A DNA stretch of 64,000 nt from Acidobacteriaceae bacterium (lineage in GTDB: Bacteria > Acidobacteriota > Terriglobia > Terriglobales > Acidobacteriaceae). The notes beneath the pieces were generated by a model that worked only from the letters and a program-made list of their open reading frames with translations, searched no databases and was not told where the DNA came from. Of this stretch, positions 37,001-53,863 are shown piece after piece; positions within the stretch are counted from its first letter, which is position 1, and each line of letters opens with the position of its first letter. The stretch covers positions 84,666 through 148,665 of the forward strand of contig PMHV01000006.1 of the NCBI GenBank assembly GCA_003156805.1, in the 5' to 3' direction. A program made the translations under genes and the position numbers.

Positions 37001-37111
37001 ATCCACCGGCATCCGCTGAAAAGACAGGATTCCCCCGACCGTGATGAAGGCGGTCAGCATCAGTACCAGGAATCTTTGCCGCAGCGCCGCTTGGACTATT
37101 CGGTGAATCAT
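34028..37111 (-). CDS. czcA: Heavy-metal efflux RND transporter, CusA/CzcA family
   Basis: 1027 aa with a 12-TM RND architecture and two large periplasmic loops. N-terminus MIHRIVQAALRQRFLVLMLT…PVDAYPDLSPPQVEVIT, and the overall sequence is typical of HME-RND pumps. Confidence 0.9.
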   Translation of the reverse strand: MIHRIVQAALRQRFLVLMLTAFITVGGILSFQRMPVDAYPDLSPPQVEVITQWPDHAAEEVERLVTLPLELEMNGVPHMVVMRSISLYGLSDLILTFEDSTDDYFARQIVFERLAQATLPTGVTPSLAPLFSPSGLVYRYVLESPDRSPQELKTFEDWVIERAYRSVHGVADDSGFGGTVMQYQVLLDPARIYGYHLTIPQVTTALAANNSNAGGGFYSQGGQFYYVRGIGLVKNTDDIGNIVVGANKGVPIRVRDIGDVTIGHAPRLGEFGFQKNDDAVEGVILMLRGEQTQNVLKGVEAKTEELNRQILPPDVKIHPYYDRSELVDLTTDTVEANLLRGMVLVLIVLIFFLVSFRAAVIVALTIPLSLLFAFIVLHAHDVAANLLSIGAIDFGIVIDGTVVMIENIYRELALREGQRYNLNEVILAAAKDVDRPIFYSVAVILAGYLPIYALNGPSGKLFHPMAETMSFALVGALILTLTLIPVLASYWFKNGVREKRNRAFEWMKGKYAGQLDWALDRPKTTIVIATLIFGAALLLVPFIGGEFMPHLDEGALWVRATMPYTISFEEASSIAPQIRDILASYPQVTVVGSELGRPDDGTDPTGFFNCEFYVGLKPYKDKAWTGDLSEKKQLIESINKKLTAFPGIIFNYTQPAEDAVDEALTGLKSSLAVKVYGDDLNVLQDKAIQIKNTLSGVPGFTDLTVVRELGQPSLLVDVDRDKIARYGINVADVEAVISAAVGGQAVTQVIQGEKLFDLVVRMQPQFRSSAHEIGNLLVGTPDGQQIPLSQLANITQGNGASFIYRENNSRYIGVQYSIEGRDLERAVHDGQAAVKRVVSLPQGYTMAWGGEYSQFLEARSQMYFIGPLAVVLIFMILFALYGNFKFPFTIALGVIMTEPVGALVALKLTHTPFSVSSVLGLLALLGVSVETAVILVSYINKLRLEGMGIRTATREASLLRLRPIMMTALVACLGLLPAALSTGIGSDTQRPFAIVIVAGLISRLFIGFFVNPVLYEMVAREGDVLQV

Positions 37112-37190
37112 TCCGGTGTGGTGGACACTATCCTGTCAGATTTCTTGGAACACTGGCCTTGGAACATTGGATGAATTTTGCGCCGTCCGT

Positions 37191-38360
37191 CTAGCGCTGC
37201 AGCGAGTTCGCAAACTGCAAAAACAAGCTGCCATTTCCGATGACCCGGTCGCCAGCCTTCAGCCCGCTTGTAATCTCCGTCTGTCCATTAAAGCCTTCGC
37301 CGAGGGTGACTGAGCGTCTGCCAAACTGGTTGGCAGATGCCGCGGCATAAACGAAGGGCTGGTTCTCGGTATCGCGCAACACCGCCGCATCCGGAAGCGC
37401 AATGGCATTGCGGATCGTACCGGCGTTTACGGTCGCAACCACATACATATCTTTCTTCAATTTTTCGCCGGGATTGGGCGTTTCGATGCGCGCCTGCAGC
37501 GTACGCGTGCCCGGATCGAGCGAGGCGGCCACGTAAGAGATGCGGCCGTGGAAGACTTCAGGGTAAGTATCCGTCTGAATCGAGACCGTATCTCCTGCGT
37601 GCACGTAAGGCAAATCCTTCTGATAGACATTGACCAGAACCCAAACCGTGCTGATGTCGGAGATCATGAAACATTGAGTGCTGCCCGGCTGAATGAGTTG
37701 TCCCGCCGACACATCCTGCTCCACGATCAAGCCGCCGATCGGCGCCTTCACCGGAACTTCAAACGACGGCGGGGCTTTTACCAGGGCGTCGGGATCGGTA
37801 ATTCCCATGACTTTCAAAGCGGCTTCCGCCGATACCAGGTCACCGCCGGCCTGCACCTCGGCCGACTCCGCCTGCTCCACATTCTGCTCGGCAATCGCAT
37901 GATGTTGATAGAGGTCCTGGGCGCGGGTGTAGGCTTTTTGTGCCAGGGCGTAGGCATCCTTGGCCTTCAAATAATTCGTGCGCAGCTGCGAGTAATCCGG
38001 ACTCGCCACGTACAGCATGGGCTGGCCCTGAGTTACTTTCTGCCCGGGAGCCACCACGATCCGGCTGACCGGACCGCTCACCTGGGTGATGACCGGCGTC
38101 GTACGAAAACTGTTGTAAGCCACGGCGCCGGTCAGGCGTAGCGTTCGAGTCAGCGTCGTGGGTTGAACTGTCAGCACCTGCACATGCGACATCTGATCTT
38201 GCGGAATGGTAAACAGTTCCGCATTCGTTGAGTTTGTTGCTCCATTTGAATTGGCCGCGTTCGATCCTGAGCCCCCGCAACCGGCCAGCGCCGGCAAAAT
38301 CGCCAATGCCGCGGCCCAAGCAGTCAACTGCGGCCAAAGTTTCCTACGGGCGTTCTTCAT
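37191..38360 (-). CDS. czcB: Efflux RND periplasmic adaptor (membrane fusion protein)
   Basis: Lipoprotein-like signal (ALAILPALAGCGG), a coiled-coil hairpin region and beta-barrel/HlyD_D23-like segments (…GDTVSIQTDTYPE.F.GRISYV). It sits between the OMP and RND genes. Confidence 0.8.
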   Translation of the reverse strand: MKNARRKLWPQLTAWAAALAILPALAGCGGSGSNAANSNGATNSTNAELFTIPQDQMSHVQVLTVQPTTLTRTLRLTGAVAYNSFRTTPVITQVSGPVSRIVVAPGQKVTQGQPMLYVASPDYSQLRTNYLKAKDAYALAQKAYTRAQDLYQHHAIAEQNVEQAESAEVQAGGDLVSAEAALKVMGITDPDALVKAPPSFEVPVKAPIGGLIVEQDVSAGQLIQPGSTQCFMISDISTVWVLVNVYQKDLPYVHAGDTVSIQTDTYPEVFHGRISYVAASLDPGTRTLQARIETPNPGEKLKKDMYVVATVNAGTIRNAIALPDAAVLRDTENQPFVYAAASANQFGRRSVTLGEGFNGQTEITSGLKAGDRVIGNGSLFLQFANSLQR

Positions 38361-39628
38361 GGCAGGTTCCTCGTTCCCACCGCTTCCTTCAACTGTTCCA
38401 ATGCGGTCATATAAGAGCCCAGCGCCTGGCGATAGGCTAACTGAATGGAACGGTAACTGCGCTCGGCATCGAGAAAATCCAAGAGGCTTGCGGCACCGCG
38501 CTTATAAGCATACTCGCTGATGTCGCGCGAATCCTGCGCCTGCTTGAGGTACCCGGAAGTATAGAGTTGCACCACTTCGTCATTGCTCCTGACCGCCTCA
38601 TAAGCGTTGGCAACGTCGGAAAGAACCGTATCGCTGGCCGCTTGCTGCTGCTCCTGGGCCTGCGTCAGCGCGTAACCGGTGCGCGCGATCTCTCCTTGAT
38701 TGCGATTGAAAATCGGCAACTCAAAATTTGCGAAAATCGAAGCCGTGTTCTCACCCGAGACATGAGTGAAGTCATACGTGCCGTTCACGTCTACCTTGGC
38801 GTTCGCTTTGGCCAGCAGGATTTGGCTCTGCGCCGCGGTTATTCCCAGTTCCGCGGCATGGAAGTCCGGACGCTCGTGCAGCGCCTTCATCTGCAGGTCT
38901 TCCAGGTTCGCCTTGAGCGGCTGGTAGGCCAGATCGCCCATCACGTCATAATTGGCCGGCACCGCGTTATAGCCCAGGAACTCACGCAGGGCGACAAGCG
39001 CCTGCACTTTCGCCAGCCGTGCCGAGGACACGTCGGTCTGAAATTGCAGCAGCTGCAGCTTGATCTTAAGATAATCGCCTTCCCCAATGTAGCCTGCCTT
39101 GAATTGCGCATCACCAATATCGACGGTCTGCTGAAAGCTTTTTAGATCCTGAAGCGCGAACTGAAGAGTGGATTCCGCCAACAAAACGCCGACGAACTGC
39201 TGGCCTACGTTGAAGGCCAGAGTTCGTTCGGCATCGGCGACTTGAGCGCGAGTCACGGCGGTTTGATCGCGAGCGGCTTGCAGGCGCCGCTGCCGCTTGT
39301 GGCCGCGTTCGAAGAGGTAGCTGATTCCGATATCGAACTGCTGCGTCTCGTCCAGATTCTCCCCGGAAAAATCCTGCGGACTGAAAAACGGGACGAACTG
39401 CGTATCAACCCCAAAAGTCGGATTAGGGCGCAGATTGGCTGTGATCTCCTGGGCCTGATTTTGAAGAATCAGAGTTCGCGTGGCTTGGATGGAATGGTTG
39501 TGCGCCAGCGCCAGATCGATGGCCTGATCAAGACTGATCAGCGTCGTATTTTGCCCAACGCTTGCCGCCACAAGCAGCAGGAAAAACGTCGCAGCCGGGG
39601 CCAGCGTCCGAGAATACCTGGAGCGCAT
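38357..39628 (-). CDS. czcC: TolC-family outer membrane efflux protein
   Basis: Two OEP-type repeats (L.LD.AI.LAL.HN..IQA…; …AEL.I.AAQ.Q…) and a 4-nt overlap with the adaptor gene. I set the start at MRSRYSRTLAPAATFFLLLVAA (the ORF track extends to 39676). Confidence 0.8.
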   Translation of the reverse strand: MRSRYSRTLAPAATFFLLLVAASVGQNTTLISLDQAIDLALAHNHSIQATRTLILQNQAQEITANLRPNPTFGVDTQFVPFFSPQDFSGENLDETQQFDIGISYLFERGHKRQRRLQAARDQTAVTRAQVADAERTLAFNVGQQFVGVLLAESTLQFALQDLKSFQQTVDIGDAQFKAGYIGEGDYLKIKLQLLQFQTDVSSARLAKVQALVALREFLGYNAVPANYDVMGDLAYQPLKANLEDLQMKALHERPDFHAAELGITAAQSQILLAKANAKVDVNGTYDFTHVSGENTASIFANFELPIFNRNQGEIARTGYALTQAQEQQQAASDTVLSDVANAYEAVRSNDEVVQLYTSGYLKQAQDSRDISEYAYKRGAASLLDFLDAERSYRSIQLAYRQALGSYMTALEQLKEAVGTRNLP

Positions 39629-40221
39629 AAGGGTTGAGATCAAAGGGCACCGAGCGAAGCCAAACAAATCCCGCACGGATGCTCGAACCTAACCAGCGCT
39701 ACGCCAAGCTCTGTCGTCTGTATCATGCCAAGTTCGCGCCTCAGGGCTCAATGGATGTATTGTAATTGACGGCATTCATGATCGCGCCATACTTGTGATC
39801 CTCTCACAATCCCGGTCAACACGAAGGTCGCGCGTCGGTCCCCTCACAACAATGGCTAACCCACAATTAGTGACCGTTCGCACTGTATGAGACGGCCACC
39901 AACGGTTGATCGCTATTCCAAAGCGTGGGTAGTGGCATCCTCGAAAAAATCGTTGTCGGTCGGGAATGCATGAGCGTGTCTCAAGCGATCGCGAGGCCAA
40001 CCGATTCCAGGGGCGGTTCCTCCAAGTGCCCTGCGCAGAAACAAGGCGCGAAACTTGCCGGCGGGTTCGCGCTGCTCTGGACATCTAAAGCGTTCTTAGG
40101 GACTCCCATGGTCTGGCCTTCTACCCCGTTCTCTCGAAGAAGGTGCTCGCACAGAGGAGCGCTTTCAGCTGCGATTCTCTTTGCGGTTTTGCAATGCCGT
40201 TGATGAGGACAAAAGGGTTGT

Positions 40222-43200
40222 CTAGAATTGCACTCGAAGTGAAAATTCGACCTGACGCTGCGAGGCGTTCGGCGCCAGCGTGGTGATGACTGCTCCAGTT
40301 TCTTGGCCATTGGCGGAGCAGTCTACACAGCCGCTGGGAAGCCCCAGGTTCACCCGGTTAAAAGCATTCAAGAAATCGGTCCTGAATTGCACGAGATAAT
40401 TCTCGAAAATAGCTATGTCCTTGGTGATTGCCACGTCGGTATCATAGTAGGAGGGGCCGCGCAACGAGTTGTTCCCAGCCGTTCCAAAGGTTCCGATTGC
40501 CGGTCTTTGCCAGGGACCGATCGGCGCGCTCGGGCCAGTGCTTCCCTTAGGGCGACTGAGCGGCAACCCGCCGGTGGTAGTGAAGTAATCGTTACGGTTG
40601 CCCGTGATCTGGACATCCCCCACAAGGTTCGGGCGACAAGGCCCTGTATCCCGATCCACGTTACACTCGCCCTGAATGTAGGTCGGGGAGAAAGGCACTC
40701 CGCTGGCCCAGGTTGTGCTCGTGTTGATCGACCATCCGCCAACCAAGTAGTTGGCAGCAGTACTGGCGTTGCCAAGCAGAGCTTTGCCTTTTCCAACAGG
40801 AAGGTTAAGAACATTGTAGAAAATGAAAGTGTGTTTGCGATCGTAAGTATTCAAACCATAGTCCAAGCCGGGATTCTGATTGTAGTAGCTCGCGTCATAA
40901 CCCAAACCCTTGGCCCACGTGTAGTTAGCTTGGAATTCGTAGCCTTTGGTGAGGCGTTTGACGAGTTTGGCCTGCATCGAGTTGTAGTTTGAGGAGGCAT
41001 CGTCGCCGTAATAGTTGATTGCCTGGCTCCAGCCGAAGGAGTAAAAAGGATAGCGCTCCAAACAGGCAGTGCTCTTAGGGTTCCCCGTCTCGTAGCAGGC
41101 CAGATAGCCCGCAATGGTCGGCTGGTTCAAGTTGTAGTAACCGTTGCCGGCATTCGTTATGGGCAAGTGAGTGCCTTTATTTCCTACGTACCCGATTTCA
41201 ACGTACATGTTGGAAGTGAGTTCGCGTTGTATGGTGAGGTTCCACTGATCCAGCGTGGGAACCTGCAGCTTCGGAGGCACAGCATAAACGGTCACAGCGA
41301 CCAAGTCACTACTCGGTATCTGCCCGTTCGACGGCACGCTGGGATACAGGATAGGAGGGGGCTGCGGGACACATTGATTTGGGTTTACTGTGCATTGAGC
41401 CTGGTCACCCAACTGAAACACATAGAGCTGTTTATCAGGGGTCGGGTTCGTCGGCTGTGTATTGTTTTGGGCGAGGGCGACGGGCGGGTTTTCCGTGGCG
41501 CTGGCACTGAATACCTGCGGAGACGCCGAGTCGAAGTTGCGGCCGTAGGCTGCTCTCAAAATGGTCCGGAAGTTCAACTGATAGGCCATCCCCACACGGG
41601 GGGCAAGATTGGTCAGCGCGTTGCGGATGTTGCCCTGAAGGTTACAGCAGGGATAGCCGGCGATGTTGATCGTCCCCGTATTGAGGTCTAGATAGCCTCC
41701 CTTATTCTGCCCATTGACCGATTGCGGAAAGTAGATCTCCCAGCGCAGTCCATAGTTCAGGGTAAGTCTTGGCGTCATGCGCCATGTATCCTGCCCGTAG
41801 AAGAATACCCGCTTCTGAAGTTCCTCCGCGTCTGAGATGCTGCCGACAGTGCGCGAGAAAGAGGTCACATAGCCAAGGAGAAATGTTGCCAAGCCCAAAC
41901 CGCCTGTACCTGAGGGATCGTTCAACTGGTCGGTAACCTTGCCGGAAGATGCAAGCAATCCTGCCCGATGGGGTGAACTGTTCACCATTAGATCCTGCGC
42001 GTAGCGGAAATCTGCGCCCCACTTTAACAAGTGGTTGCCGTGGGTCTTGGCCCAGTTGTTGACCCACTGAAATTGTTGGAGCGTTTCGGTGAGCGGGCAA
42101 TCGCATCCATTTAGGGTTTCACCGTCCCCAAAGGTGATGTTGCTGCTCACCGCCTGGAACGAGGGCTGGGTGATTTGGATGCCGGGCATGCCCGAGGTCA
42201 GGCTGTCGCCCAGATTCAAGCCTGGGATGCCGGCGCTGGTGGCAGGGGTGGTGTCGTAGTCATTCTGCAATACCTGCAGGTTTGTCCGGAAGAAACCAAA
42301 ACGAAAATCCGTGACCAAGCTGGAACTGAGAGAGTAATCCAAGCCCGTGGAAAGACTCTGGTTCTGCGACCGGCTTTGGCCGGCAAATCCATCGGGCCCA
42401 AACCCGCCACCTCCCGCCACAAACCCGAATGCGCTGGGACCGTTGATGCGGTAGTCGGCAAAACTGTAGCGGCCCAGCAGGTGAAGTGTTTCGCTCAGGT
42501 TGTCATCGACTCGCACCGTGTAGTCGTCGTCATTGTATCCCTCGCTTCCCGCAACGCTATAGTTGGAAACCACCCCGGGCAAGTTGGGCGGCGGCAGTAA
42601 GGAAAGCAGATTCACGGCTTGCGGAGAAAGGGAGCTTTGCGGAACGCAGTAGCCCGCTAGTCCTCCGGCACAGCCTGGGATCGCGCGAAACGGCATGCCG
42701 GTCTGTGGGTCATAGATAAGATTGGTGGGCAGGTACTCGCTCAGATCACACCCGCTGGTAGTGGTGAAGCAGGTGTCGCGAACCTGCTGGGTCGGAACGT
42801 TTAGGAATTGTGTGGAACTGAAGGAACGGCGCGTCCCCTGATAATCCCCGAAAACGAAGAGCTTGTTCTTGACGATCGGGCCTCCGAGAGAACCGCCAAA
42901 CAGATCAATGCGAAAAGGGGAAATCCCTGCCAGGTTCGGGTTCTGCAGGTTCGGGTTGCTCGCTTCTCCCCAGCTCGTACGCCTGAAGTCGAGTAAGCTG
43001 CCGTGCCACACATTGCCGCCCGACCGGGTCTCAGCCGCGACGACGCCGGAGAGCGCCTGGCCCGTCTCGGCGTCATAGCTTTGGGTTGTGATCTTGATTT
43101 CTGCCAAGGACTCAAGCGCTGGGTTGATTACATAAATCTGGGTAACCGCCCGGTTGTCAGTCCCGTCCAGCAGCAGAGCGGTGCCACTGGGAGGTTTTCC

Positions 43201-43752
43201 GTCCAGCGATACCAGCAGGCTCTGCCCAGGATTCCGGCTGAAGTTTGTGCCGAGCATTTGTATTTGTGCGCTGGGCGCCAGCAAGGTGAAATCGGAAGCG
43301 TTCTGAGTGAAATTCGGCAGAGACTGAATCGCAGTCTGGTCCAGCGTGATAGAAACGTCGGCTCGGGTCTTCAACGTGCTGCCGCCCGCGGTTCCGGCAA
43401 TCGCCAATTGGCCGCGCCTCGGCAGAACCGGATTGACCAGGGCTTCGTCGTCGGCCACCACCGAGATATCGAGGGTGGTTGTCTTTCTGCCGCCGGCTTC
43501 AGCTGTAAGGTCATAGCTTTCGGGAAGCAGATTCGGAAATTCGTACTCACCGTGCTGATTGCTTTTCGCTCTAAGCTGTGTCCCCTTCTCCACTGAGGTT
43601 ACGGTAACGGTGGCCCCGGCTACCGGCTCACCGGATCCTTCTTGAACGGTTCCGTGAATTCCGCCGTACGTGTTCTGCGCCGAAGCCGTCTGCGACAGCA
43701 CCAGCGCAAGACACAGGCGGAATAGCAGGACAGCAACAAGAGATTTCCTCAT
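40222..43752 (-). CDS. TonB-dependent receptor with an N-terminal carboxypeptidase-regulatory-like domain
   Basis: Signal peptide (…LVLSQTASAQ), then a CarboxypepD_reg-like segment GTVQEGSGEPVAGATVTV…YEFPNLLPESYDL. A ~1000-aa beta-barrel follows and ends in an aromatic residue (…SLRVQF). Confidence 0.8.
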   Translation of the reverse strand: MRKSLVAVLLFRLCLALVLSQTASAQNTYGGIHGTVQEGSGEPVAGATVTVTSVEKGTQLRAKSNQHGEYEFPNLLPESYDLTAEAGGRKTTTLDISVVADDEALVNPVLPRRGQLAIAGTAGGSTLKTRADVSITLDQTAIQSLPNFTQNASDFTLLAPSAQIQMLGTNFSRNPGQSLLVSLDGKPPSGTALLLDGTDNRAVTQIYVINPALESLAEIKITTQSYDAETGQALSGVVAAETRSGGNVWHGSLLDFRRTSWGEASNPNLQNPNLAGISPFRIDLFGGSLGGPIVKNKLFVFGDYQGTRRSFSSTQFLNVPTQQVRDTCFTTTSGCDLSEYLPTNLIYDPQTGMPFRAIPGCAGGLAGYCVPQSSLSPQAVNLLSLLPPPNLPGVVSNYSVAGSEGYNDDDYTVRVDDNLSETLHLLGRYSFADYRINGPSAFGFVAGGGGFGPDGFAGQSRSQNQSLSTGLDYSLSSSLVTDFRFGFFRTNLQVLQNDYDTTPATSAGIPGLNLGDSLTSGMPGIQITQPSFQAVSSNITFGDGETLNGCDCPLTETLQQFQWVNNWAKTHGNHLLKWGADFRYAQDLMVNSSPHRAGLLASSGKVTDQLNDPSGTGGLGLATFLLGYVTSFSRTVGSISDAEELQKRVFFYGQDTWRMTPRLTLNYGLRWEIYFPQSVNGQNKGGYLDLNTGTINIAGYPCCNLQGNIRNALTNLAPRVGMAYQLNFRTILRAAYGRNFDSASPQVFSASATENPPVALAQNNTQPTNPTPDKQLYVFQLGDQAQCTVNPNQCVPQPPPILYPSVPSNGQIPSSDLVAVTVYAVPPKLQVPTLDQWNLTIQRELTSNMYVEIGYVGNKGTHLPITNAGNGYYNLNQPTIAGYLACYETGNPKSTACLERYPFYSFGWSQAINYYGDDASSNYNSMQAKLVKRLTKGYEFQANYTWAKGLGYDASYYNQNPGLDYGLNTYDRKHTFIFYNVLNLPVGKGKALLGNASTAANYLVGGWSINTSTTWASGVPFSPTYIQGECNVDRDTGPCRPNLVGDVQITGNRNDYFTTTGGLPLSRPKGSTGPSAPIGPWQRPAIGTFGTAGNNSLRGPSYYDTDVAITKDIAIFENYLVQFRTDFLNAFNRVNLGLPSGCVDCSANGQETGAVITTLAPNASQRQVEFSLRVQF

Positions 43753-43948: not shown

Positions 43949-46405
43949 TTAGTGCGGCCCTGACTCGACGATCCAACGGTCCCCTTGCCTGCCCATTTTG
44001 AACACTACCGAATCCTGCACCAGTCCACCCCCTTCATCGGGACGAACCACATTTTGGGTGCGTTTGCAGGTGACTACGGCCACACTGCCGGTGATGTTCA
44101 ACTCTCCGATCGACAGCTTCATGCTGATCGATTTGGCCGCCTTGAACAAATCGCGTGTCCGTTGTTGGGCGCGGGCGGGAAATGTTGGCCATAGCAAAAG
44201 AAGTTGATCGATGTCTTTTTGATTGTAAGCTTGCTCATACTTGCGGACCATATCCCGAATCTGCTTGTCGTCGATCAGAGCGGCAACTTCGGCGCGGGCT
44301 TGTTGGCTGTACCTCCCCTGCGGATACTTGGAAAGATACTTTTGCAAATCCTCAATGTTCTTGCTGTCTCGATCACTGACCCACTCCTCCTCTTCTCCCC
44401 TGAGAATGTTCATGCGGGCACGGGCTTCCGCACAGACCGCGCCACGGCAGCGACCCAGGAAATCATCGAGAGCGATCAAGATTCCCGAATCGTTGCGGTT
44501 CTTGAGACTGTCCCATTCCAATTGCTCGGCTCGGTCGCGCGCGCGCGCCGAGAATCGCCCGCCAGGGTTCTCACGGATGAAAGCTTGCAGGGCTGGCAGG
44601 TCATTACTGTTCGCCAGTAGCTGCCAGCGCTGGTATTCGGTATCCACCTTCAGTTGGGCGGTATAAACAATTTGTTCCCCGAGAACCGACAGGAATTTCG
44701 AGTCGTCAGGCACAAAGCCATCTTTGGCAACACGGAGGGCGTGCTCGCCAGGCGAGACCGTGAGCGAGAAGGCGCCTGTCTCCGAGGTGGCTCCCACGTC
44801 TCTGCCATCCAAGCTGACGGTTGCGCCGGGCGGCGCGCCCTGAACCGACATAGAGCCCACCGCAATTGCTTTCGACTGCTCTTGCAGCTTGAAGATCAGC
44901 GGCGTTTCCGATTGAGCCTTGATCTCGATGGGCAGTGAAACCGTCTGAAAGCCTGGTTTCTCCGCGCGGACTTTATAGGTGCCGGCGGGGATGCCATCGA
45001 TACGCAAAACTCCTTCCTGCGCAGTTCTTCCATACTCCTGATCGTTGACAAAGATGGTTACGTTCTTCTCGCTAACATTCACCAACAACGACCCAGTGTT
45101 CATCAGCGCTCCGGACGCGACGCTGAACGACGCCCAAAACGGCGGGGGTGCTGGAGTCCGGAAGACTGCGGTGGGCCCTTCCGGGAGGGTTATTCGGTAT
45201 TGCCTGAGGTAGAGATATGCGCCGGCGGCAAACACGGGAATGGCGGCGAGAGCGGCAACCTTTGCGCCTCGCTTGTACGCAGCTTTTTGACGGCGCAATT
45301 CAGCGCCGGGTAGATTCGACGTCACCCAATCCCGGTCGAATACGCGTTCGTAGATTCGATTGCGCACCCTCAGAAAAGCCTTCTCGGACCGCGTGATCCC
45401 AGCGAGCCGCAAGACCGGCACCAAGGGGTTGGTTTCGTCGTCCCGGACTTTCCCGCCACGCCGCACCTTGTCGTACAGGCTGAGCAAGCTTGGAGTGTCG
45501 ACCTCGCTGCGCAGCATGCGTTCGCGCACGAACAGCAGATTGTCGTCATGTTCGCGCGCGCGCAAAGAGAGAAAGAGGTCGTTACATATGCGATCGACTG
45601 CCGAAGCAGTTTGGGCGCTGGCGGCTTCGGCTACGGCGCGGCACAGGCGCTGCGTCAGGTAAGGGTGGCCTCCGGTCCAGTACAGAATCCTGCGTAAGAG
45701 TTGGTGGCCACTCTGAGTTTTCCCTCCCATGCCGAGCGCAAGCGGGCCCGCTTCTGCTTCCGTGAAGTCGGTCAATTCAATACGGTGCCCGATGTTGAAG
45801 GGAGTAGTACGAGTATCGCGGATCAGATCGGAGGGAGTCGCCACACCGAGCAGGCAGAAAGCAAGTCGGTCCAGTGCCGGATCCTGGGCGCGGCGATTGT
45901 ACAGCTCTCGAATGCCGGCAAAAAATTCGTCGGTGGAGAAGGAGAGACTGCGGACCGCATCGATTTCATCAATGAACACAACAATCTGGCCCGGGCAGCG
46001 CTCCAAAAGAACAGAACGCACGGCGACCATCCAACGCTGCAGCGGGCCCAGGGACTGGTTCTTGTCCCATTCGTCTTCCAGTTCATTCTCGAGGTCGAGC
46101 TGCTCCCCGATGCGGTCGAGCAGTCCCGTGTACCACTGTTCGACGCTAAGGTTTTGGCCCAAAGCCGTCAGGTCGAGAACGGCAACGGAGGCTTGGTCCT
46201 TGCGCAGCCGAGCGGCCGTGCGGACCATTAGGGACGACTTGCCCATCTGCCGGGCAGTGAGTACGTAGCAAAACTCACCTCCTGTCAACGAGGTGTAAAG
46301 ACGGGAATCGGCTTCGCGAGCAACGTAGCATTGGGCGTCCCGATGCAGGGTGCCGCCGATTACGTAAAAAGATGCCGAGTTCGAGACGCCCAAGGTGTTG
46401 ATCAC
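43949..46405 (-). CDS. AAA_35-like P-loop ATPase, single TM helix, two PEGA domains, helical repeats and an NTF2/SnoaL-like domain
   Basis: The GTG start overlaps the upstream stop (GTGA). Walker A is [11 protein letters not shown] and Walker B is [11 protein letters not shown]. The winged-helix-like part has [15 protein letters not shown] and GGHPYLTQR. The TM segment is [20 protein letters not shown]. Two PEGA-like modules are present ([11 protein letters not shown]…[13 protein letters not shown] and [11 protein letters not shown]…[12 protein letters not shown]). The C-terminus is [24 protein letters not shown]…RWIVE (NTF2-like). Confidence 0.65.
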
Positions 46406-48906
46406 AGCAGATGTTGCGCCAAATACAGCTCATAGAGTTTGCAGCGAGGCTTCATATCTCGCGCCGACTCTCCAGAGACCAGGCCTGAACTCCGCAAGCG
46501 GTAAAAGACTTCCAAAGGGGCGCTGTGCCGGCCGGACAACATCTCGCGCACGAAATTGCAAAGCGCGGCATCTTCAGCGAGCGAAACCAGCAATCGCCTT
46601 AGATGATCTCCGAAGGGGCCTTCGTCGCGGGCCGCTTGGCTCTCAAAGTCGGGAAAACCCAAATTCCGGGAGGCCAACTCGTGCAAACCGCGGCGCGTCA
46701 GGTAGGGTTGCCCTCCAACTAGGTCGTAGAATTGAACGAGCTCTGACTTATCGCGCAAGGGAGTGCCGTATCGTTTGTTAAGTTCCTCCAATTGCAAGGG
46801 AGTGAAATCGTTCAAAACCAATCGTGTACCAACATTGAACGGACTCTGGTTCATGTCGGTGATGAACATGTGGGCCTCGGTCGCATACGCAATCGCCAGG
46901 GTGAGTTTCTGCCACGGGCCACTGGGATCGAGGGAGCGCTCGTTGTGCCACGAACGGAACAGCCCGAACACCTCACTGCCGAAGTTGCAACTGAACAGCC
47001 GGTCAACTTCGTCCATACCCCAGACCAGGGATTGGGATACCTTGCCCAGAACCTCGCGTTTCAGAAAACGCTCGAAGTTCATGCTCGGCCCGCGCCGCGG
47101 GTTCCAGACGTCCGCCGGGACGACGTCGATGTCGAGTTGTTCCGCAATCCACTCCGACAAAGCAAGGAACAGCTTCTCCACTGATTCCAGGTGGCAGGCG
47201 TTGAGTTTCTGAAAGTCGGTAAGTATGACCTTATATCCGGCCTTGCGTGCTTCCTGCAGGCCGCGCGCCATCAGGGAACTCTTGCCCATCTGACGAGCGC
47301 CCTTGATCAAAACAATGCTGTCTTTCCGCGCCAACGCCTCGTAGAATTCTTCGTCCGTCGGACGCACGACATAGAAGCGCGAGTCCGTGGGAACCGCCCC
47401 ACCAACCGTTTCGAGCCAGATTCGGCGAGGGTTTGTTTTCGGAGGGTTCTGCAACGATTCCGTAATCTCGGTGATGAGGGACGGGCTGTCCTGCGGTCCC
47501 TTCCATTGCGCGTACTGGATCCCATCCAGGATCGCGGCGAGCGGGCTGGGCAGAGTGCCCTCAAAATTGATCCGGATGGGCAGAATGCGCGGTCTTCCGT
47601 TCTTCTGCGCTGACTCGTGTGCGATCTGCACCTCGTAGGCCAGCATTTCGCTGTTTACCGCCGTGGCGGAAAGCAGCACAACCACCGCGTAGGCATTGCT
47701 GACCCTGCGTTCGATCTCCCGCGCCCACTCCATGCCAACTTGCAAATGGCAGTCGACAAAAACCGGATAGCCGCTCCTCCGCAGTTGTTCTTCAAGCAGC
47801 CTTAGGATCTGCTCGTCCGGCTGGGAATTGCGTTTATACAAGAGCGCAACTTCGCCCAACTTGGCCGCTTCGCTCTCAATTGCGCGTACTGGGGCGGTTG
47901 CCGCTCGGGGGAGCGCAAGCGCCCGCTGCAGATGTATTCGCATCTCCAGCGCCGACTGGTAGCGCAAGCTGCGTTCCTTGCTGAGCGCCTTGCCGATGAT
48001 TCTCTCCAGTTCAGGCGGCAGCTTCGGATTCAAGCTGGCGGGTGAAACCGGTTCACGATTGAGGATCGCTTCAAAAATCACGGCCGAGGTGTCACCGCGA
48101 AAAGGCTGGATTCCAGTAGCCATCTCGTATAGCACGATACCGAGGGAGAACAGATCGGTGCGATTGTCGAGTTCCAGACCGCGCGCCTGTTCCGGTGACA
48201 TATAGGAAACAGTCCCAACCCACTCCCCGGGAGCGGTCAGGTCCGAACTGGTGGGCTGGGTCGTTGAAGCGGTGAGGGCTTCCCCAATTTCCGTTGAATG
48301 GCGCTGGACGGAAGTAAACTTCGCCAGTCCAAAGTCCAGGACCTTCACCTGGCCGCGCGCCGTGACGAAGATGTTGGCAGGTTTAATGTCGCGGTGGATG
48401 ATACCTTGCGAATGGGCGCAATCGAGGGCGTCGGCGATCTGGATCCCTTGCTGCAAGATCTCGTCATCGCTCAGCTGCTTGCGCACAATTCGGTGTTTCA
48501 GCGTCTCCCCTTCCAGCAACTCCATCACAATGAAGTAGCGGCCCTCGAAGTCGCCAACATCGTGCACCGTGCAAATATTGGGGTGGTTCAGTAACGACGA
48601 GGCGCGCGCTTCTTGCTGAAAGCGCTCCAAGGAAGACGGGGTGGAAGGCCGGTCTTCGGTGAGAAACTTCAGGGCGACTCGGCGGCCGAGCCGCTGATCC
48701 TGTGCTTCGTAGACAACGCCCATGCCCCCACCGCCCAGTTTTTTCAAGATGCGGTAGTGCGAGACCGCCCGATTGATCATCGGATCGGGCAAGTTCGGTC
48801 CCACTGCGGTTTCGCCCTCCGGAGCGTCCTTCACCTTTCCCGGGGTCTGGGGATTGCCGAATCCCTGGCCGTACAGTATTTGCGATGTTTTTTCGGTCGG
48901 AACCAT
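46402..48906 (-). CDS. Fusion protein: Hanks-type Ser/Thr kinase, TIR-like domain and AAA_35-like P-loop ATPase
   Basis: The kinase motifs are [10 protein letters not shown] (G-loop), VALKFL (Lys80), HRDIKPANI (Asp173), DFGLAK and SYMSPEQ. The TIR-like region is aa ~352-470 (LLYKRN…[16 protein letters not shown]…[25 protein letters not shown]). The ATPase motifs are [13 protein letters not shown] (Walker A), LVWGMDEVD (Walker B), [15 protein letters not shown] and GGQPYLTRR. The start could instead be Met43 (48780). Confidence 0.7.
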
Positions 48907-49206
48907 AGAACGTTTCTAGAAAAGTATTTCGAAAAGCCTGATATCAGCGCCGTTTCAGCGGGCGTCAACGTACGGCACTTCGTTCGGCTCCAGTGCGGGT
49001 CGGAGCATCACGAAGAGTCTGGGGATGCACCCAAGCAAGCGGGGAAATGTTAAGCTGTTTCGCCCCACTTTTCAAGCTGTGGCTGCGGGCGCCAGCCGAT
49101 CTGCTTCGTCCAAATACTAGACAGGCTGCACTCCCCGCGCTTCCCGCGGCGAGAGAATAGGCACAGTGAAAGCTAGGTGGGTACAAAATTAGGCACAATG
49201 GGGAAA

Positions 49207-49269
49207 GGGCCGATTCAAGATCGGCCCTAAACTGTTAGTGCAAAAGGGAGGGCTCGAAGACTCGAACCC
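49207..49269 (-). terminator. Two consecutive terminator-like hairpins on the minus strand
   Basis: Minus-strand reading gives GGGTTCGAGTCTTCGAGCCC (GGG/CCC plus TCGA/TCGA stem) followed by TCCCTTTTG. It then gives GGGCCGAT-CTTGA-ATCGGCCC (8-bp perfect stem) followed by TTTCCCC. They close the non-coding stretch downstream of tRNA-Leu. Confidence 0.5.
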
Positions 49270-49610
49270 CGGGTTTTACCTGCCAGATTCGTGGGTCTGT
49301 GACGCTCGTTCGTGCTAAAGCCTTCTCGCACTCGCTCTTACCGCAGCTTCCGGCGCGACCGAGCGCCGACACGTCGATGGGACTGTAGAGGATTGCAGAT
49401 GCGCCAACTAACGTTGAATCAACACGACGGCCAGCCAACCTGAATCCCACCCAACGCAATCAATATCAGTCTCAGCCATCGGGTGACTCGCTCAAGGTCC
49501 TCGATGGACTCTAGCAGCAGAAGACTCATCTGTTCCACAGTCCTGCTGCGGCTCCCATGTTCTTACTAAACTTCGGCCGCTGCTCTTTGGTTCATACAAC
49601 AACCCTTTCA

Positions 49611-49695
49611 TGGTGCCGGGAACAGGACTCGAACCTGCACGCCTTTCGGCGCTAGCTCCTAAGGCTAGTGTGTCTGCCAGTTCCACCACCCCGGC
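49611..49695 (-). tRNA. tRNA-Leu (anticodon UAG), CCA encoded
   Basis: The reverse complement folds as a class II tRNA. The acceptor stem is GCCGGGG/UCCCGGC. The anticodon arm is CUAGC-CUUAGGA-GCUAG (anticodon UAG). It has a long variable arm CGCCGAAAGGCG and a T-arm GCAGG-UUCGAGU-CCUGU, and it ends in ACCA. Confidence 0.9.
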
Positions 49696-50018: not shown

Positions 50019-50723
50019 ATGACAAGAGTAGAATCTTTAGGAGTGATGATCAGGTTTGCCGCCGGGATGTTGCTGGTCGCCATCACTCCTCCGGCTCCCG
50101 AGCAGGCGGGCCCAGCCGTTGATGTCCACGCAGTCGCTGCCGCCGTGGATGAGCATTATGATCGCTTGCACACCCTGCAGGCGGAGTTCACCGAGACCTA
50201 TCAGGGCTCCGGCATGGAGCGGACGGAATCGGGAACGCTTTGGCTGAAGAAAGCGGGGCTGAAAAAACCGGGCAAGATGCGTTGGGAGTATCGTTCTCCC
50301 AAAGAGAAGTTGTTTGTGAGCGACGGGAAAGACGCGTGGTTTTACGTCGTCAGCGACCGGCAGGCGCGCAAAACCACGATGCGGGACTTGGATGATATTC
50401 GCTCTCCTCTGGCGTTTCTTCTGGGTAAGACTAAGCTGGAGAAGGAGTTACAGGGTTTATCGGTAGCTGTGGATGTGCCTCCGCTGACGCCGGAGGATGT
50501 GCTGCTGCGGGGCATCCCGCGGGCGCTGGCGGACCGGGTTAGCGAAGTTCTGCTAGAGATTACTCCGCAGCATGAAATTGTGCGGATGGTCATTGAGGAA
50601 GTGGACGGGGCGGTGACCGATTATCGCTTTACCGCGCAGAAGGAAGATGTGCCGATTTCTGACGAACGGTTCCGGTTCCATCCGCCGGCGGGGACGGAAA
50701 CGGTGGATGAGCCGGCGCCGTAG
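50019..50723 (+). CDS. LolA-like outer-membrane lipoprotein carrier family protein
   Basis: …VDEHYDRLHTLQAEFTETY……ESGTLWLKK.G.MRWEY..P.EKLFVSDGKDAWFYV resembles the LolA/LolA-like pattern. It has an N-terminal hydrophobic signal region. The exact start is uncertain. Confidence 0.6.
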   Translation: MTRVESLGVMIRFAAGMLLVAITPPAPEQAGPAVDVHAVAAAVDEHYDRLHTLQAEFTETYQGSGMERTESGTLWLKKAGLKKPGKMRWEYRSPKEKLFVSDGKDAWFYVVSDRQARKTTMRDLDDIRSPLAFLLGKTKLEKELQGLSVAVDVPPLTPEDVLLRGIPRALADRVSEVLLEITPQHEIVRMVIEEVDGAVTDYRFTAQKEDVPISDERFRFHPPAGTETVDEPAP

Positions 50724-50956
50724 GCGACGCTGGCAATGTTAGAGGGGAGTGACTGTATCACACTGTCGGACATACACTTGTGATAGGAGATCGGAGGCGG
50801 CTTCCTCTGCCGAGCCGGGTTATTACCTGCGATACTGGTAGGGACGCAAGTTGGTCCCCGAACCCAAGCCGCAACCCAGTTGGCAGTGTTAGACTGAGCC
50901 GGTAGAGGTGTCTGCCGGTAACAGAAACGCCAGAACGATAACGTTCACACAACCCC

Positions 50957-52156
50957 ATGGCAGAATTCGTCATAAAAGTCGCGGACGAACGCGGGCACAT
51001 GCTCCAACAGGTGGAGAACGGCTACTCCGTGGCCGAGGTGCGTGACCGCTTCACCTCGCAGGGTTATCTGGTTTATTGGGTGAAACCCCAGGGATTGCTC
51101 TCCGGGAGCTTCTCGCGGAGCCGCGGAGGGAAGCTGAAGCAGAGCACCTTCTTGGTGTTCAACCAGCAATTTCTCACGCTGATTCGGGCCGGCCTGCCCA
51201 TTCTGAATTCGCTGGATTTGTTGATCAAGCGGCAGCGAGACAACTATCTGCGGCAACTGCTGGAAAATGTTCGCGACCGGGTGAAGGGCGGAGAATTGCT
51301 CTCCGATGCCTTTGCCGCGCAGCGGGGAGTTCCCAAGATCTACACCACCACGCTGATGGCGGGAGAAAAAAGCGGAAACATCGACGAAGTGCTCACCCGC
51401 TACGTCAACTTCCAGCGCATGACGATGTCGTTCCGCAAGAAGTTGTTTGTTTCGCTGATTTATCCCACGCTGCTGGTGACCGTAGTGACGATCATGGTGA
51501 TGTTTCTTTTCACCTATGTCGTGCCCAAATTCGCCGATCTGTTCGAAAGTCTGGATGCGAAGTTGCCGGCGATTACGGTGTTTATGCTGGAGGTGGGGAA
51601 AGACTCGCAAAAGTACGCGCCGGTGGGGCTGATTGGCATGGCTCTCGCGATTTTCCTGTTCTGGCAATGGAAGAAAACTGACCGTGGCGCCGACCTGATA
51701 GACCGCGTGATTCTGAGCCTTCCCCTGCTCGGCGATATCCGCCTGAAACATCAGGTGGCAACTTTTTCCCGCATGTTGGCCACCTTGTTGCAAGGTGGCC
51801 TGCCCCTGGTTCCATCCATGGAGACCGCAGGCGGCTCCATGAGCAGCCGGCGCATCTTAAAAGGAATATTGCGGGCCAGCACGCGCGTCCGCGAGGGCCA
51901 GGGACTGGCCGGCAGCCTGGAGGAACAGAAAATTTTTCCCGACCTCGCCGTAGAGATGATCGAGGTCGGCGAGTCCACCGGGGCCCTGCCGGCCATGCTC
52001 AATTCCGTGGCTGAGTTTTACGAGGAAGATGTGCAGACCGCCCTGGGCGCGTCGATGGCGCTGATCGAGCCGCTGATTCTGATTGTGATGGCGATTTTCG
52101 TGGGAGGAGTGTTGATTTCGCTGTATTTGCCGATCTTCACTCTTGGGGTGCACTGA
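50957..52156 (+). CDS. pilC: Type IV pilus platform protein (GspF/PilC family)
   Basis: 399 aa with two GspF-type repeats (…FNQQFLTLIRAGLPIL.SL… and …FSRMLATLLQGGLPLV.S…) and three TM segments. It sits immediately upstream of pilB. Confidence 0.85.
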   Translation: MAEFVIKVADERGHMLQQVENGYSVAEVRDRFTSQGYLVYWVKPQGLLSGSFSRSRGGKLKQSTFLVFNQQFLTLIRAGLPILNSLDLLIKRQRDNYLRQLLENVRDRVKGGELLSDAFAAQRGVPKIYTTTLMAGEKSGNIDEVLTRYVNFQRMTMSFRKKLFVSLIYPTLLVTVVTIMVMFLFTYVVPKFADLFESLDAKLPAITVFMLEVGKDSQKYAPVGLIGMALAIFLFWQWKKTDRGADLIDRVILSLPLLGDIRLKHQVATFSRMLATLLQGGLPLVPSMETAGGSMSSRRILKGILRASTRVREGQGLAGSLEEQKIFPDLAVEMIEVGESTGALPAMLNSVAEFYEEDVQTALGASMALIEPLILIVMAIFVGGVLISLYLPIFTLGVH

Positions 52157-52192
52157 GCCAATAGTACGGAACCGAATGCGGGGATGTGAGAA

Positions 52193-53863
52193 ATGGTAAT
52201 GGCGGAAAAGAAATCACTTTTCGTGAATGGCGCCAACGGCGGGCAGGTGATCACCAGCGGCAATCCCATCACCGATCTGGAGCGGGCGCAGGACGTGGCC
52301 CGGCGCTATCGCTGCGAGTTCGTGGACCTCACCGACTTTCAGCTGCATCACGATCTCTTCAAGAAAATCTCGCCCGATCTGATGTTCCGCTACAACTTTG
52401 TGCCCCTGGAAGAAACCGACGACGGGCGCCTGGCCATTGCCATTGCCGATCCCAGCCAATTGATGCTGATCGACGAAATCAGCCTCCTGCTGCAGAAGCG
52501 AATCGTGACCAAGGTCGCGACCCTGAAGCAGATCAGCGACATCCTCAAGAAGACGGAGCAGTCGCAGCGCGTATTGGAGGAAGCCAGCGAAGGCTTCACC
52601 ATCATTCGCGAAGACGAGAACACCGGCGTCGAAGAAACTCTGACCATCGACAAGCTGACCACGGCGGGCGACACCAGCCCCATCATTCGGCTGGTGGATA
52701 CGACCATCTTCACGGCGCTGCAGCGGCGCGCCTCCGATATTCACGTGGAAACCCGGGACGATTCGGTGGCCATCCGGTTCCGCATCGATGGCGTACTCAC
52801 CCAGGCCATGTCGCCGATCGGCAAGGAGCACCACTCCACCGTGATTTCGCGCATCAAGGTGATGAGCGAACTGGACATCTCCGAACGGCGCGTGCCCCAG
52901 GACGGCCGCTTCCGCGTCAAGTACAACGGGCGGGCCATCGACTTCCGCGTTTCCATCATGCCTTCGATTCACGGCGAGGACGCCGTGCTGCGCGTGCTCG
53001 ACAAAGAATCGATGAGCGAGAAGTTCCGCACTCTGACCCTGGACGTGGTCGGGTTCGAGGAAGACGACTTGCGCCGCTTGCGCCGCTACATCAAAGAACC
53101 CTACGGCATGGTGCTGGTCACGGGGCCTACGGGCAGCGGCAAGACCACTACGCTGTATGCCGCGGTGAACGAGATCAAGACGGATGAAGACAAGATCATC
53201 ACCATCGAAGATCCGGTCGAATACCAGCTGCGCGGCATTACCCAGATTCCGGTCAACGAGAAAAAAGGACTGACCTTCGCCCGCGGCTTGCGCTCCATTT
53301 TACGCCACGATCCCGACAAAATTATGGTCGGGGAAATCCGCGACGCCGAAACCGCCCAGATCGCGATTCAATCGGCTCTCACCGGCCACCTGGTGTTCAC
53401 CACGGTCCACGCCAATAACGTGGTCGATGTGATTGGCCGCTTTCTGAATATGGGCGTGGAGCCTTACAACTTCGTTTCGGCGTTGAACTGCATTCTGGCC
53501 CAGCGGCTGGTGCGCTTGATTTGCGAGTCCTGCCGGACGCCGGTGGTTTATCCCCCGGAAGTGCTGGAGGCGAGCGGACTGGACCCGGTGCAGTGGTCGA
53601 AGGTGGCCTTGTATGAGGGGCCGGGATGCATCGAGTGCGCGGGCACGGGATTCCGCGGCCGCAGCGCGATTCACGAATTGCTGGATTTGAGCGACCGCAT
53701 CCGCGAGATGATTCTGGCCAAGAAGCCGACTTCGGAAATCCGCCGCGCCGCCCGCGACGAAGGCATGCGCTTTCTACGCGAGTCGGCTCTGGATAAGGTG
53801 CGGCTCGGCCTGACCACGCTGAAAGAGATTAACAAGGTCACATTTATCGAGGCCATGCGTTAA
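52193..53863 (+). CDS. pilB: Type IV pilus assembly ATPase (GspE/PilB family)
   Basis: N-terminal T2SSE_N-like domain (RYRCEFVDLTDF…RYNFVPLEE), Walker A GPTGSGKTTT, IMVGEIRD, the His box LTGHLVFTTVH and a tetracysteine motif CESC…CIEC. Confidence 0.9.
   Translation: MVMAEKKSLFVNGANGGQVITSGNPITDLERAQDVARRYRCEFVDLTDFQLHHDLFKKISPDLMFRYNFVPLEETDDGRLAIAIADPSQLMLIDEISLLLQKRIVTKVATLKQISDILKKTEQSQRVLEEASEGFTIIREDENTGVEETLTIDKLTTAGDTSPIIRLVDTTIFTALQRRASDIHVETRDDSVAIRFRIDGVLTQAMSPIGKEHHSTVISRIKVMSELDISERRVPQDGRFRVKYNGRAIDFRVSIMPSIHGEDAVLRVLDKESMSEKFRTLTLDVVGFEEDDLRRLRRYIKEPYGMVLVTGPTGSGKTTTLYAAVNEIKTDEDKIITIEDPVEYQLRGITQIPVNEKKGLTFARGLRSILRHDPDKIMVGEIRDAETAQIAIQSALTGHLVFTTVHANNVVDVIGRFLNMGVEPYNFVSALNCILAQRLVRLICESCRTPVVYPPEVLEASGLDPVQWSKVALYEGPGCIECAGTGFRGRSAIHELLDLSDRIREMILAKKPTSEIRRAARDEGMRFLRESALDKVRLGLTTLKEINKVTFIEAMR

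Follow-up and report, generated by a model that had tools for sequence, protein, structure and literature searches.

The 64,000 nucleotides of Acidobacteriaceae DNA considered here (assembly GCA_003156805.1, contig PMHV01000006.1, positions 84,666 to 148,665; "the window" refers to this whole stretch) contain two overlapping genes, A and B, whose products each carry a nucleoside triphosphatase (NTPase) module of the Pfam family AAA_35 (PF14516). In the A protein the module follows a Ser/Thr kinase and a TIR domain; in the B protein it precedes a predicted transmembrane helix and a series of domains that would lie outside the cytoplasm. A sequence-only reading of the window had put the pair forward as a candidate system of conflict, defence or death signalling. 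The comparisons described below, which extend to relatives of the pair in other bacterial phyla and to an outer-membrane receptor encoded beside it, lead us to prefer signalling across the cell envelope.

Architecture of the two proteins

The features on which the argument draws are as follows, in window coordinates.

46402..48906, minus strand: gene A, 834 aa with an ATG start (open-reading-frame list), a cytoplasmic Ser/Thr kinase-TIR-A-type AAA_35 protein (STAND-like NOD)
48876..48886, minus strand: scar of a 498-bp in-frame deletion (about 166 codons) at the 5′ end of A (DNA and protein alignments)
47956..48756, minus strand: Hanks-type protein kinase domain of A, aa 51-317 (Pfam Pkinase, E 2e-46)
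47497..47826, minus strand: TIR domain of A, aa 361-470, with putative catalytic Glu E425 (TIR_2, E 9e-17)
46417..47400, minus strand: A-type AAA_35 NTPase module, aa 503-830, made of P-loop, helical domain and winged helix (NOD; Pfam AAA_35)
43949..46405, minus strand: gene B, 818 aa with a GTG start (open-reading-frame list), a membrane-anchored B-type AAA_35-PEGA-PEGA-TPR-like-NTF2-like protein
45311..46369, minus strand: B-type NTPase module, aa 13-365 (Pfam AAA_35 at aa 18-259, E 2e-30; winged helix)
45206..45262, minus strand: single predicted transmembrane helix of B, about aa 382-400 (hydropathy and charge; inside model helix 368-406)
44660..45097, minus strand: two PEGA/CarboxypepD_reg-like beta-sandwich domains of B, aa 437-505 and 517-582 (Pfam, model, Foldseek)
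44306..44641, minus strand: three CpoB/YbgF- and BamD-like helical (TPR-like) repeats of B, aa 589-700 (profile against PDB)
43961..44305, minus strand: NTF2/SnoaL-like alpha+beta cone of B, aa 701-815 (model, Foldseek)
40222..43752, minus strand: outer-membrane protein of the TonB-dependent-receptor type, 1176 aa, adjoining B (Pfam)

The reading frames and the GTGA overlap are exactly those given by the sequence-only reading: the junction reads CTGCTGTGATCAAC, and the GTG of B overlaps the TGA of A by 4 bp. The residues it had marked out (K80, D173, E425 and K542 in A, K56 in B) each occupy the expected position, and its domain assignments for both proteins all hold when Pfam, structural models and Foldseek comparisons are taken together.

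The kinase of A has a complete motif set (G-loop, VAIK Lys, alphaC Glu, HRD, DFG and SPE). Specifically, K80, E99, D173, N178, D191-F-G and S237-P-E are invariant in an alignment of four orthologues, and the catalytic residues are the majority residue in an alignment of 121 sequences, where we attribute the non-matching letters and gaps to homologues that have no kinase domain. With its catalytic residues intact, the kinase appears to be active. The TIR_2 match scores 62.1 bits over a cut-off of 28 bits, and in 121/121 homologues E425, S413 and S419 do not vary. Aligned to the bacterial NADase TIRs 7uxr and AbTIR and to SARM1, E425 sits on the W..YE motif, which we take to carry the catalytic Glu of AbTIR; a Foldseek search with the model of A likewise matches the SARM1 TIR (TM-score on target 0.75-0.78) and that of SPARTA, and the ThsB_TIR profile scores 16.7 bits, under its cut-off of 21.2. 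Given this conserved catalytic Glu, an NAD-consuming output is possible. The AAA_35 match that follows is full-length (261.2 bits against a gathering threshold of 27, E 1.4e-77, profile positions 4-330 of 331), with Walker A GARQMGKSS, Walker B GMDEVD and GGQPYL. Walker A (G..GK[ST]S), the DE of Walker B and the G.P of the third motif (G732, P734) are invariant in 121/121 A-type homologues, and the model of the TIR and AAA_35 part (pLDDT 88.1) shows a helical bundle and a beta-hairpin winged helix. By hydropathy A has no transmembrane helix (highest 19-residue Kyte-Doolittle value, KD19, 1.5), and no sensor domain was found in it.

The kinase-TIR-AAA_35 composition of A was correctly read from the sequence alone, and what that reading missed is the origin of this form. 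Orthologues of A are usually about 1000 aa long and begin with a class III cyclase-homology domain, which is present in 8/12 of them. In an alignment with the DNA of L007, the closest relative, conservation extends through the 5′ region and the first codons and resumes after the 498-bp gap; this clean deletion took the ancestral N-terminal cyclase domain, and the A of the window is a derived form that has lost it. Inspected by eye, the aligned orthologues that keep the domain appear to retain the predicted metal-binding Asp residues and the Asn/Arg pair, and the usual substrate-specifying Lys seems to be replaced. One related locus (L009) has a second, convergent cyclase-TIR-AAA_35 gene, without a kinase, just downstream of B (13476-15605, minus strand). 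Over the TIR and NTPase part, kinase-less cyclase-TIR-AAA_35 proteins (P0125-P0141) match the window's A at 80-87% identity. They are thus about as close as true orthologues, which suggests recent domain shuffling among paralogues.

In B, the AAA_35 match (106.1 bits, profile positions 4-244) includes Walker A ARQMGKSS and Walker B FIDEID, both invariant in 109 orthologues, and GGHPYL. Full-length orthologues with the same architecture are many, at 47-85% identity. An AlphaFold2 model built on the 109 orthologues (mean pLDDT 83.7) runs from a P-loop/helical/winged-helix module (aa 30-365) through a long helix (368-406) and a disordered linker to two beta-sandwiches, helical repeats and a C-terminal alpha+beta cone. 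The predicted transmembrane segment within the long helix has a Kyte-Doolittle value of 1.64 in the window and up to 2.5 in orthologues; it is flanked by six Lys/Arg residues on its N-terminal side and two on its C-terminal side, and a basic motif conserved in B-type proteins, ELRRQRAAYRRG, lies just before it. Since the NTPase module must face the cytoplasm and the helix is single, the variable domains that follow are placed outside.

These domains are of envelope type. Pfam sets one PEGA/CarboxypepD_reg domain at about aa 449-508 and the second from aa 517, and Foldseek returns beta-sandwich matches for the region. The helical repeats match CpoB/YbgF (6g5s, E 9e-7) and BamD (E 0.01-0.02) in a profile search of PDB, and PF13525 (YfiO) matches in orthologues; CpoB/YbgF and BamD are periplasmic envelope-biogenesis factors. 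The terminal cone of B has no Pfam match and resembles the NTF2-like proteins 3cnx, 3b8l and 3hx8 and the CaMKII hub (Foldseek, TM-score on target 0.57-0.68), and one orthologue (P0062) matches DUF4440. The sequence-only reading had called an NTF2-like domain here, and had placed it, beyond one transmembrane helix and two PEGA domains, outside the cytoplasm. The NTF2-like call is upheld by model and Foldseek although Pfam is silent, the helix and the PEGA domains by hydropathy, Pfam and model, and the location agrees with the predicted topology and with the kind of domains found. Among orthologues the median identity is about 70% in the cytoplasmic part and about 37% in the periplasmic part, suggesting that the sensor side of B evolves roughly twice as fast as the NTPase side.

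Conservation of the pair and its receptor

The set of loci with a PEGA-type B comprises 12 distinct loci and the window, 13 in all. In 13/13 of them the gene immediately upstream of B encodes a kinase-TIR-AAA_35 protein, usually with the same 4-bp overlap. Related loci come from Terriglobales/Acidobacteriaceae. Over the wider family, an A-type gene is directly upstream of 46/63 B-type genes for which at least 2.5 kb of upstream sequence is available, and several of the B-type genes without one are second or third tandem copies of B. The sequence-only reading had taken A and B to be a coupled unit with paralogous ATPases; their co-conservation as neighbours bears out the first point and an identity of 27% between A-type and B-type modules the second. 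The partner modules also co-diverge, with a mirror-tree Pearson r of 0.70 compared with a maximum of 0.25 in 1000 partner permutations. Both Walker motifs are retained in 86/86 B-type modules, drawn from many phyla, and in 59-60/60 A-type modules; neither A nor B is a degenerate pseudo-NTPase. Natural multi-module AAA_35 proteins also occur (P0249, P0250, P0251, P0258, P0267, P0269, P0270 and P0272): some consist of two or three NTPase modules in tandem on a single chain, several of them followed by a transmembrane helix, and in one a B-type module is joined to an A-type module without such a helix.

The family is large. In a scan of one genome per species, the N-terminal module of B is encoded at no fewer than 589 loci, often in several copies per genome, with an identity of 58-69% among Acidobacteriota, Armatimonadota, Verrucomicrobiota, Planctomycetota, Actinomycetota and Chloroflexota. 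From 1.84 billion representatives of 50%-identity clusters, an exhaustive phmmer search retrieved 9,891 at E<=1e-3, of which 4,534 reach E<=1e-30, and at least seven phyla are represented. Domain mapping on 80 retained loci and six others reveals a common layout, in which a gene for an output domain and an A-type NTPase is followed by a gene for a B-type NTPase, a transmembrane helix and a variable sensor. Among the A-type N-termini, 14/17 previously unassigned ones carry an OmpR-type winged helix, with or without BTAD (SARP-like), and others are kinase, kinase-TIR, TIR, cyclase-TIR or cyclase-kinase-TIR. The B-type C-termini are WD40 propellers in 60/80, with PEGA and CHASE2 also occurring and an FGE-sulfatase domain in at least one (L017:12173-14272), and 87/91 B-type proteins have a strongly hydrophobic 19-residue segment right after the NTPase module. 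The same A-then-B layout is carried by cyanobacterial megaplasmids; on pLBX of Leptolyngbya boryana, an HTH-A gene is followed by a B-transmembrane-WD40 gene with a 4-bp overlap. Cyanobacteria, Nostoc among them, are rich in members of Pfam AAA_35, some of which form adjacent pairs, and one Nostoc B-type protein carries CHASE2, an established extracytoplasmic sensor domain. The WD40, FGE-sulfatase and CHASE2 domains (in L017, L092:4989-6677 and other B-type C-termini) lie beyond the helix of B and would likewise be extracytoplasmic. WD40-type proteins have basic residues after the helix as well (RQRNRA...), and their topology is less certain than that of the PEGA type. This mapping shows that throughout the family A carries outputs and no sensor while B carries a sensor and no output, the division of labour that had been proposed for the window's pair.

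The genes around these pairs were surveyed in a census of the 99 nearest flanking genes from 57 loci. The commonest Pfam neighbour among flanking genes is an extracytoplasmic-function (ECF) sigma factor, and its distribution is uneven: the gene immediately upstream of A encodes an ECF sigma factor in 9/13 kinase-only pairs, against 0/35 pairs of other types. The loci with an ECF gene of the PF07638 type are L019, L024, L035, L036, L043, L047, L057, L066 and L077. These nine loci would form three-gene modules of sigma factor, kinase-NTPase and membrane NTPase-sensor.

The PEGA-type loci have a neighbour of another kind. The receptor that adjoins B in the window consists of an N-terminal CarboxypepD_reg domain, an OMP_b-brl_4 barrel and TonB_dep_Rec by Pfam. 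Its orthologues are full-length and 39-77% identical, tracking the divergence of B, compared with 23-26% for unrelated TonB-dependent receptors. An orthologous receptor adjoins A and B in 11/13 PEGA-type loci, the window included, in four arrangements (downstream co-directional, downstream convergent, upstream co-directional and upstream divergent), and it stays while the other flanking genes differ. At one related locus (L088:9684-11204), another outer-membrane beta-barrel, with a weak Pfam match to Phenol_MetA_deg, takes the receptor's place downstream of B. The sequence-only reading had recorded a TonB receptor here as a mere flank. Its presence stands, and its status is that of a conserved partner; the A/B locus is inherited vertically together with its orthologous outer-membrane receptor.

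Relation of AAA_35 to STAND/NLR proteins and to known systems

A PDB sequence search found no solved structure with detectable sequence similarity to the AAA_35 modules, and a comparison of folds was therefore needed. For the TIR+NOD model of A, the best Foldseek match in PDB is the TIR-NB-ARC core of the plant receptor RPP1 (7dfv, E 1.7e-10), followed by Avs3 (8dgc), ORC/Cdc6, CED-4 (2a5y) and MalT (8bob). For the NTPase of B, SSO1545 (2fna, E 8e-8) comes first with PAB2304 (2qen) beside it, and further matches are ORC/Cdc6, Avs4 (8dgf), Avs5 (9jap) and NOD2 (5irn). Because of these matches of the two models, AAA_35 is best regarded as a nucleotide-binding oligomerisation module of the STAND/NLR type; Walker A and B, a GxP-type motif in the helical domain and a winged helix are found in both A and B along with the structural likeness. 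The AAA+ proteins ORC/Cdc6 score similarly, so the assignment to the STAND clade is not exclusive. SSO1545 and PAB2304 share with AAA_35 the P-loop, a helical domain with GG[QH]PYL and the winged helix; they presumably represent the "MNS" clade of STAND NTPases. AAA_35 itself may be the "Npun2340/2341 family" of Leipe, Koonin and Aravind 2004. That name refers to two adjacent genes of Nostoc punctiforme, with which the AAA_35 pairs of cyanobacteria would fit; the family is cited from Leipe et al. 2004 in PMC8195603. The accessible literature holds no description of the split between output and sensor, of the transmembrane anchor or of the kinase-TIR/PEGA/receptor variant, and no mention of AAA_35 or PF14516 in such a context; the text of the Nature 2026 survey of STAND proteins (PMC13581612) does not mention AAA_35. 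A paper on DGRs (PMC10907252) proved not relevant to the AAA_35 pair family.

It is informative to set the pair beside systems that it resembles in part. Paired NLRs (NAIP-NLRC4 and the plant RRS1/RPS4 type) also consist of two paralogous NOD proteins with the sensor on one and the executor on the other. In the present pair, however, the sensor partner is a predicted integral membrane protein with its sensor outside the cytoplasm, and the executor also has a kinase and, ancestrally, a cyclase. RPP1 is the protein on whose TIR-NB-ARC core the TIR+NOD model of A superposes best; the likeness to it and to paired NLRs is at the level of the fold only, sequence similarity being undetectable. Similar in gene organization is nSTAND2 (Kaur, Iyer, Burroughs and Aravind 2021, PMC8195603), a mobile two-gene operon in which both products are MNS-like STAND proteins predicted to form a hetero-multimer, one partner having eroded NTP-binding motifs and the effectors being GT4 or HEPN; the examples listed come from Gammaproteobacteria. 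In the present pair neither partner has lost Walker A or B, a kinase and a TIR serve as effectors, and the B profile, compared by hhalign with one published nSTAND2 sequence, yields a probability of 0.2% (E 0.33). On these three grounds we rejected identity with nSTAND2.

Avs1-5 and bNACHT share the STAND fold, and Avs3, Avs4 and Avs5 are among the structural matches. They are, however, single tripartite polypeptides with a cytoplasmic sensor, whereas here there are two proteins and the sensor lies past a transmembrane helix. Thoeris shares a TIR with a conserved catalytic Glu and a possible NADase output; unlike Thoeris, the pair has no ThsA-like (SIR2/Macro-SLOG) partner among the genes of the window, and its ThsB_TIR score is under the cut-off. 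The ternary iSTAND systems (Kaur et al. 2020, PMC7159879) combine STAND-derived modules with TIR and with membrane-anchored PEGA-type envelope domains, and need MoxR and vWA partners, their STAND module being inactive. Identity with iSTAND was rejected, given that no MoxR or vWA gene is found in the window or among the 99 flanking genes and that the Walker motifs here are intact.

Two further likenesses concern topology. As in FecA-FecR-FecI, the gene of a TonB-type outer-membrane receptor accompanies those of an inner-membrane protein that crosses the membrane once and bears a periplasmic domain, and of a cytoplasmic partner in signalling, and the kinase-only relatives that adjoin an ECF sigma gene add a partial likeness to FecI-type systems. 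In contrast to FecA-FecR-FecI, the receptor here has no STN domain, Pfam finds no FecR-like anti-sigma region in B, and there is no sigma gene in the locus. PknB-type kinases share with B the topology of a large cytoplasmic N-terminal enzyme, one transmembrane helix and an external sensor. We know of no cell-surface signalling system in which transduction passes through STAND NTPase modules.

A proposed trans-envelope signalling device and its alternatives

Taken as a whole, the evidence favours trans-envelope signalling over abortive-infection defence. The explanation that we put forward with moderate confidence is that A and B constitute a two-protein, NLR-like (STAND NTPase) signalling device spanning the inner membrane, B being the receptor and A the transducer. 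B would present its variable periplasmic region (PEGA-PEGA, CpoB/BamD-like and NTF2-like) on one side of a single transmembrane helix and its STAND NTPase on the other, and A would be a sensor-less paralogous NTPase bearing the Ser/Thr kinase, the TIR and, ancestrally, the class III nucleotide cyclase. A periplasmic cue, probably tied to the co-inherited TonB-type receptor through its ligand or its periplasmic N-terminal domain, would shift the state of B, whose NTPase would exchange nucleotide and nucleate a hetero-oligomer with the module of A, in the manner of NAIP-NLRC4. By induced proximity the kinases of A could then trans-phosphorylate and its TIRs cleave NAD+ or make a signal, with a regulatory output rather than cell suicide as the end result. 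Activation of TIR domains by induced proximity is the established mechanism of paired NLRs and of TIR-NLRs such as RPP1. The comparisons above show the domains, the intact catalytic motifs, the coupled and co-diverging genes, the modular logic of the family and the receptor linkage, and predict the membrane topology; that A and B assemble into a hetero-oligomer, what cue they read, which way the signal runs and which targets it reaches is what we infer.

A number of observations weigh against such a device. The transmembrane helix of the window's B is only moderately hydrophobic (1.64, as given above), the topology being a prediction, and the binding of A to B is likewise inferred. No sigma factor or DNA-binding output is adjacent in the subgroup to which the window belongs. 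Pfam finds no STN signalling domain in the receptor, and the receptor is missing from 2/13 PEGA-type loci. Finally, the catalytic Glu of the TIR is strictly conserved, and a TIR-STAND fusion is the classical architecture of immunity and abortive infection (RPP1, Avs), so that a toxic, NAD-depleting output is possible.

This last consideration leads to the strongest alternative, an unlikely one in our estimation, in which the pair is an envelope-triggered defence or abortive-infection system: B would detect an assault, for example at the TonB-type receptor, and the TIR of A would deplete NAD+ or make an immune signal, ending in arrest or death. TonB-dependent receptors are classical receptors for phages and bacteriocins, and several features of the proteins would suit such a role, namely a TIR that aligns to NADase TIRs and keeps its Glu in 121/121 homologues, a TIR+NOD model whose best match is the immune receptor RPP1 and whose next is Avs3, and the presence in a genome of several paralogous pairs, their sensors and outputs exchanged and their sensor domains evolving fast. 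The conflict systems predicted by Kaur et al. 2020 (PMC7159879) also make recurrent use of WD40 and FGE-sulfatase sensors and of TIR and kinase effectors. In its kinase region A resembles kinases of defence systems (PD-T4-6 and MAD6), but in PADLOC these, with MkoA, are generic kinase models that match A in that region only; B has no PADLOC match, and NCBIfam gives nothing above cut-off, let alone specific, for either protein. The sequence-only reading knew of no named system of this composition, and that holds, whereas its framing of the locus in terms of conflict, defence or death signalling gained no support from a defence island, phage, genomic island or PADLOC system. PADLOC on the 99 flanking genes gives only generic kinase and HEAT-repeat matches and no defence-island signal; a search for phage-borne copies found none; the GC content of the window is flat, without an island signature; and the locus and its receptor are vertically inherited. 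A tRNA gene beside the pair, recorded by the earlier reading and confirmed as tRNA-Leu (49611-49695, beyond the 5′ end of A), suggested a mobile island, an idea we rejected because its adjacency is not kept at related loci and the GC content is flat. The characterised Avs and bNACHT sensors bind phage proteins in the cytoplasm, whereas the sensors here are predicted to be extracytoplasmic. Furthermore, the outputs of the family are mostly regulators, with wHTH, SARP and HTH DNA-binding domains or kinases beside an ECF sigma gene making up a large share, and defence, without contextual support, fits poorly with them.

We give less credence still to a monitor of envelope integrity that works independently of the receptor, B binding peptidoglycan or the outer-membrane-assembly or Tol-Pal-type machinery and reporting stress to the kinase and TIR, with the receptor a co-regulated target or neutral. 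PEGA is treated as peptidoglycan-associating by Kaur et al. 2020 (PMC7159879), the helical repeats resemble envelope-biogenesis factors (CpoB/YbgF and BamD), and both the absence of the receptor from 2/13 loci and its want of an STN domain would be easily accommodated. Against this, the receptor has remained adjacent in 11/13 loci through at least four rearrangements while other flanks changed, and one of the receptor-less loci has another outer-membrane barrel in the same position. That A and B are independent, homo-oligomeric paralogues placed side by side by tandem duplication only is very improbable: each module is complete with intact Walker motifs and their physical contact is conjectural, but order, orientation and translational coupling are kept from Acidobacteriota to Cyanobacteriota despite 27% identity, the domain content is strictly complementary (outputs only on A, sensor and helix only on B), the partners co-diverge, and natural fusions occur.

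If A and B do form a membrane-spanning device, they would be the first sensor/helper NLR pair in prokaryotes. Bacterial STAND/NLR NTPases are known as single-chain cytoplasmic regulators (MalT, AfsR) or as phage sensors (Avs, bNACHT). Against this background of known signalling NTPases, the interest of the pair lies in the size of its family, in a design split across the membrane and in the tie to an outer-membrane receptor. Thousands of gene pairs in soil and aquatic phyla divide NLR logic between a membrane receptor and a cytoplasmic executor, a design that suggests an unrecognised route of signalling across the membrane. More tentatively, and with rather less assurance than for the window's own pair, one can imagine a widespread transmembrane class of NLR-like systems in which a membrane STAND NTPase reads an external cue and nucleates a cytoplasmic partner that fires kinase, TIR, cyclase or DNA-binding outputs, extended here, where the cue would be the state of a dedicated TonB-dependent outer-membrane receptor, to a three-tier relay from outer membrane to inner membrane to cytoplasm. 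Were this true, bacteria would have a third general way of signalling across the membrane, beside two-component systems on the one hand and sigma/anti-sigma or receptor-kinase systems on the other. Because the outputs are interchangeable (transcription factors, sigma-linked kinases, TIR and cyclase), the hypothesis can be tested directly, and the receptor link offers a way into how Acidobacteria connect very large repertoires of outer-membrane receptors with responses in the cytoplasm. That a TIR occurs in what looks like a regulatory setting also bears on whether bacterial TIRs act solely in immunity.

The remainder of the window adds little to the argument. Neither a second A/B pair nor an ECF sigma gene was found within it. 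About 700 bp of apparently non-coding sequence (48907-49610) separate gene A from tRNA-Leu; an Rfam scan of this region gave nothing apart from the tRNA, and a regulatory RNA upstream of A was rejected accordingly. Promoter and terminator scans there stay at chance level, including the single promoter-like site (49075-49047, minus strand). On the two flanks are ordinary neighbour genes:

34028-39676, minus strand: RND efflux operon (OEP, HlyD-type adaptor and AcrB)
50019-53863, plus strand: LolA and type II/IV secretion F and E proteins

Elsewhere in the window, an open reading frame of 1620 aa occupies 23337-28199 on the minus strand.

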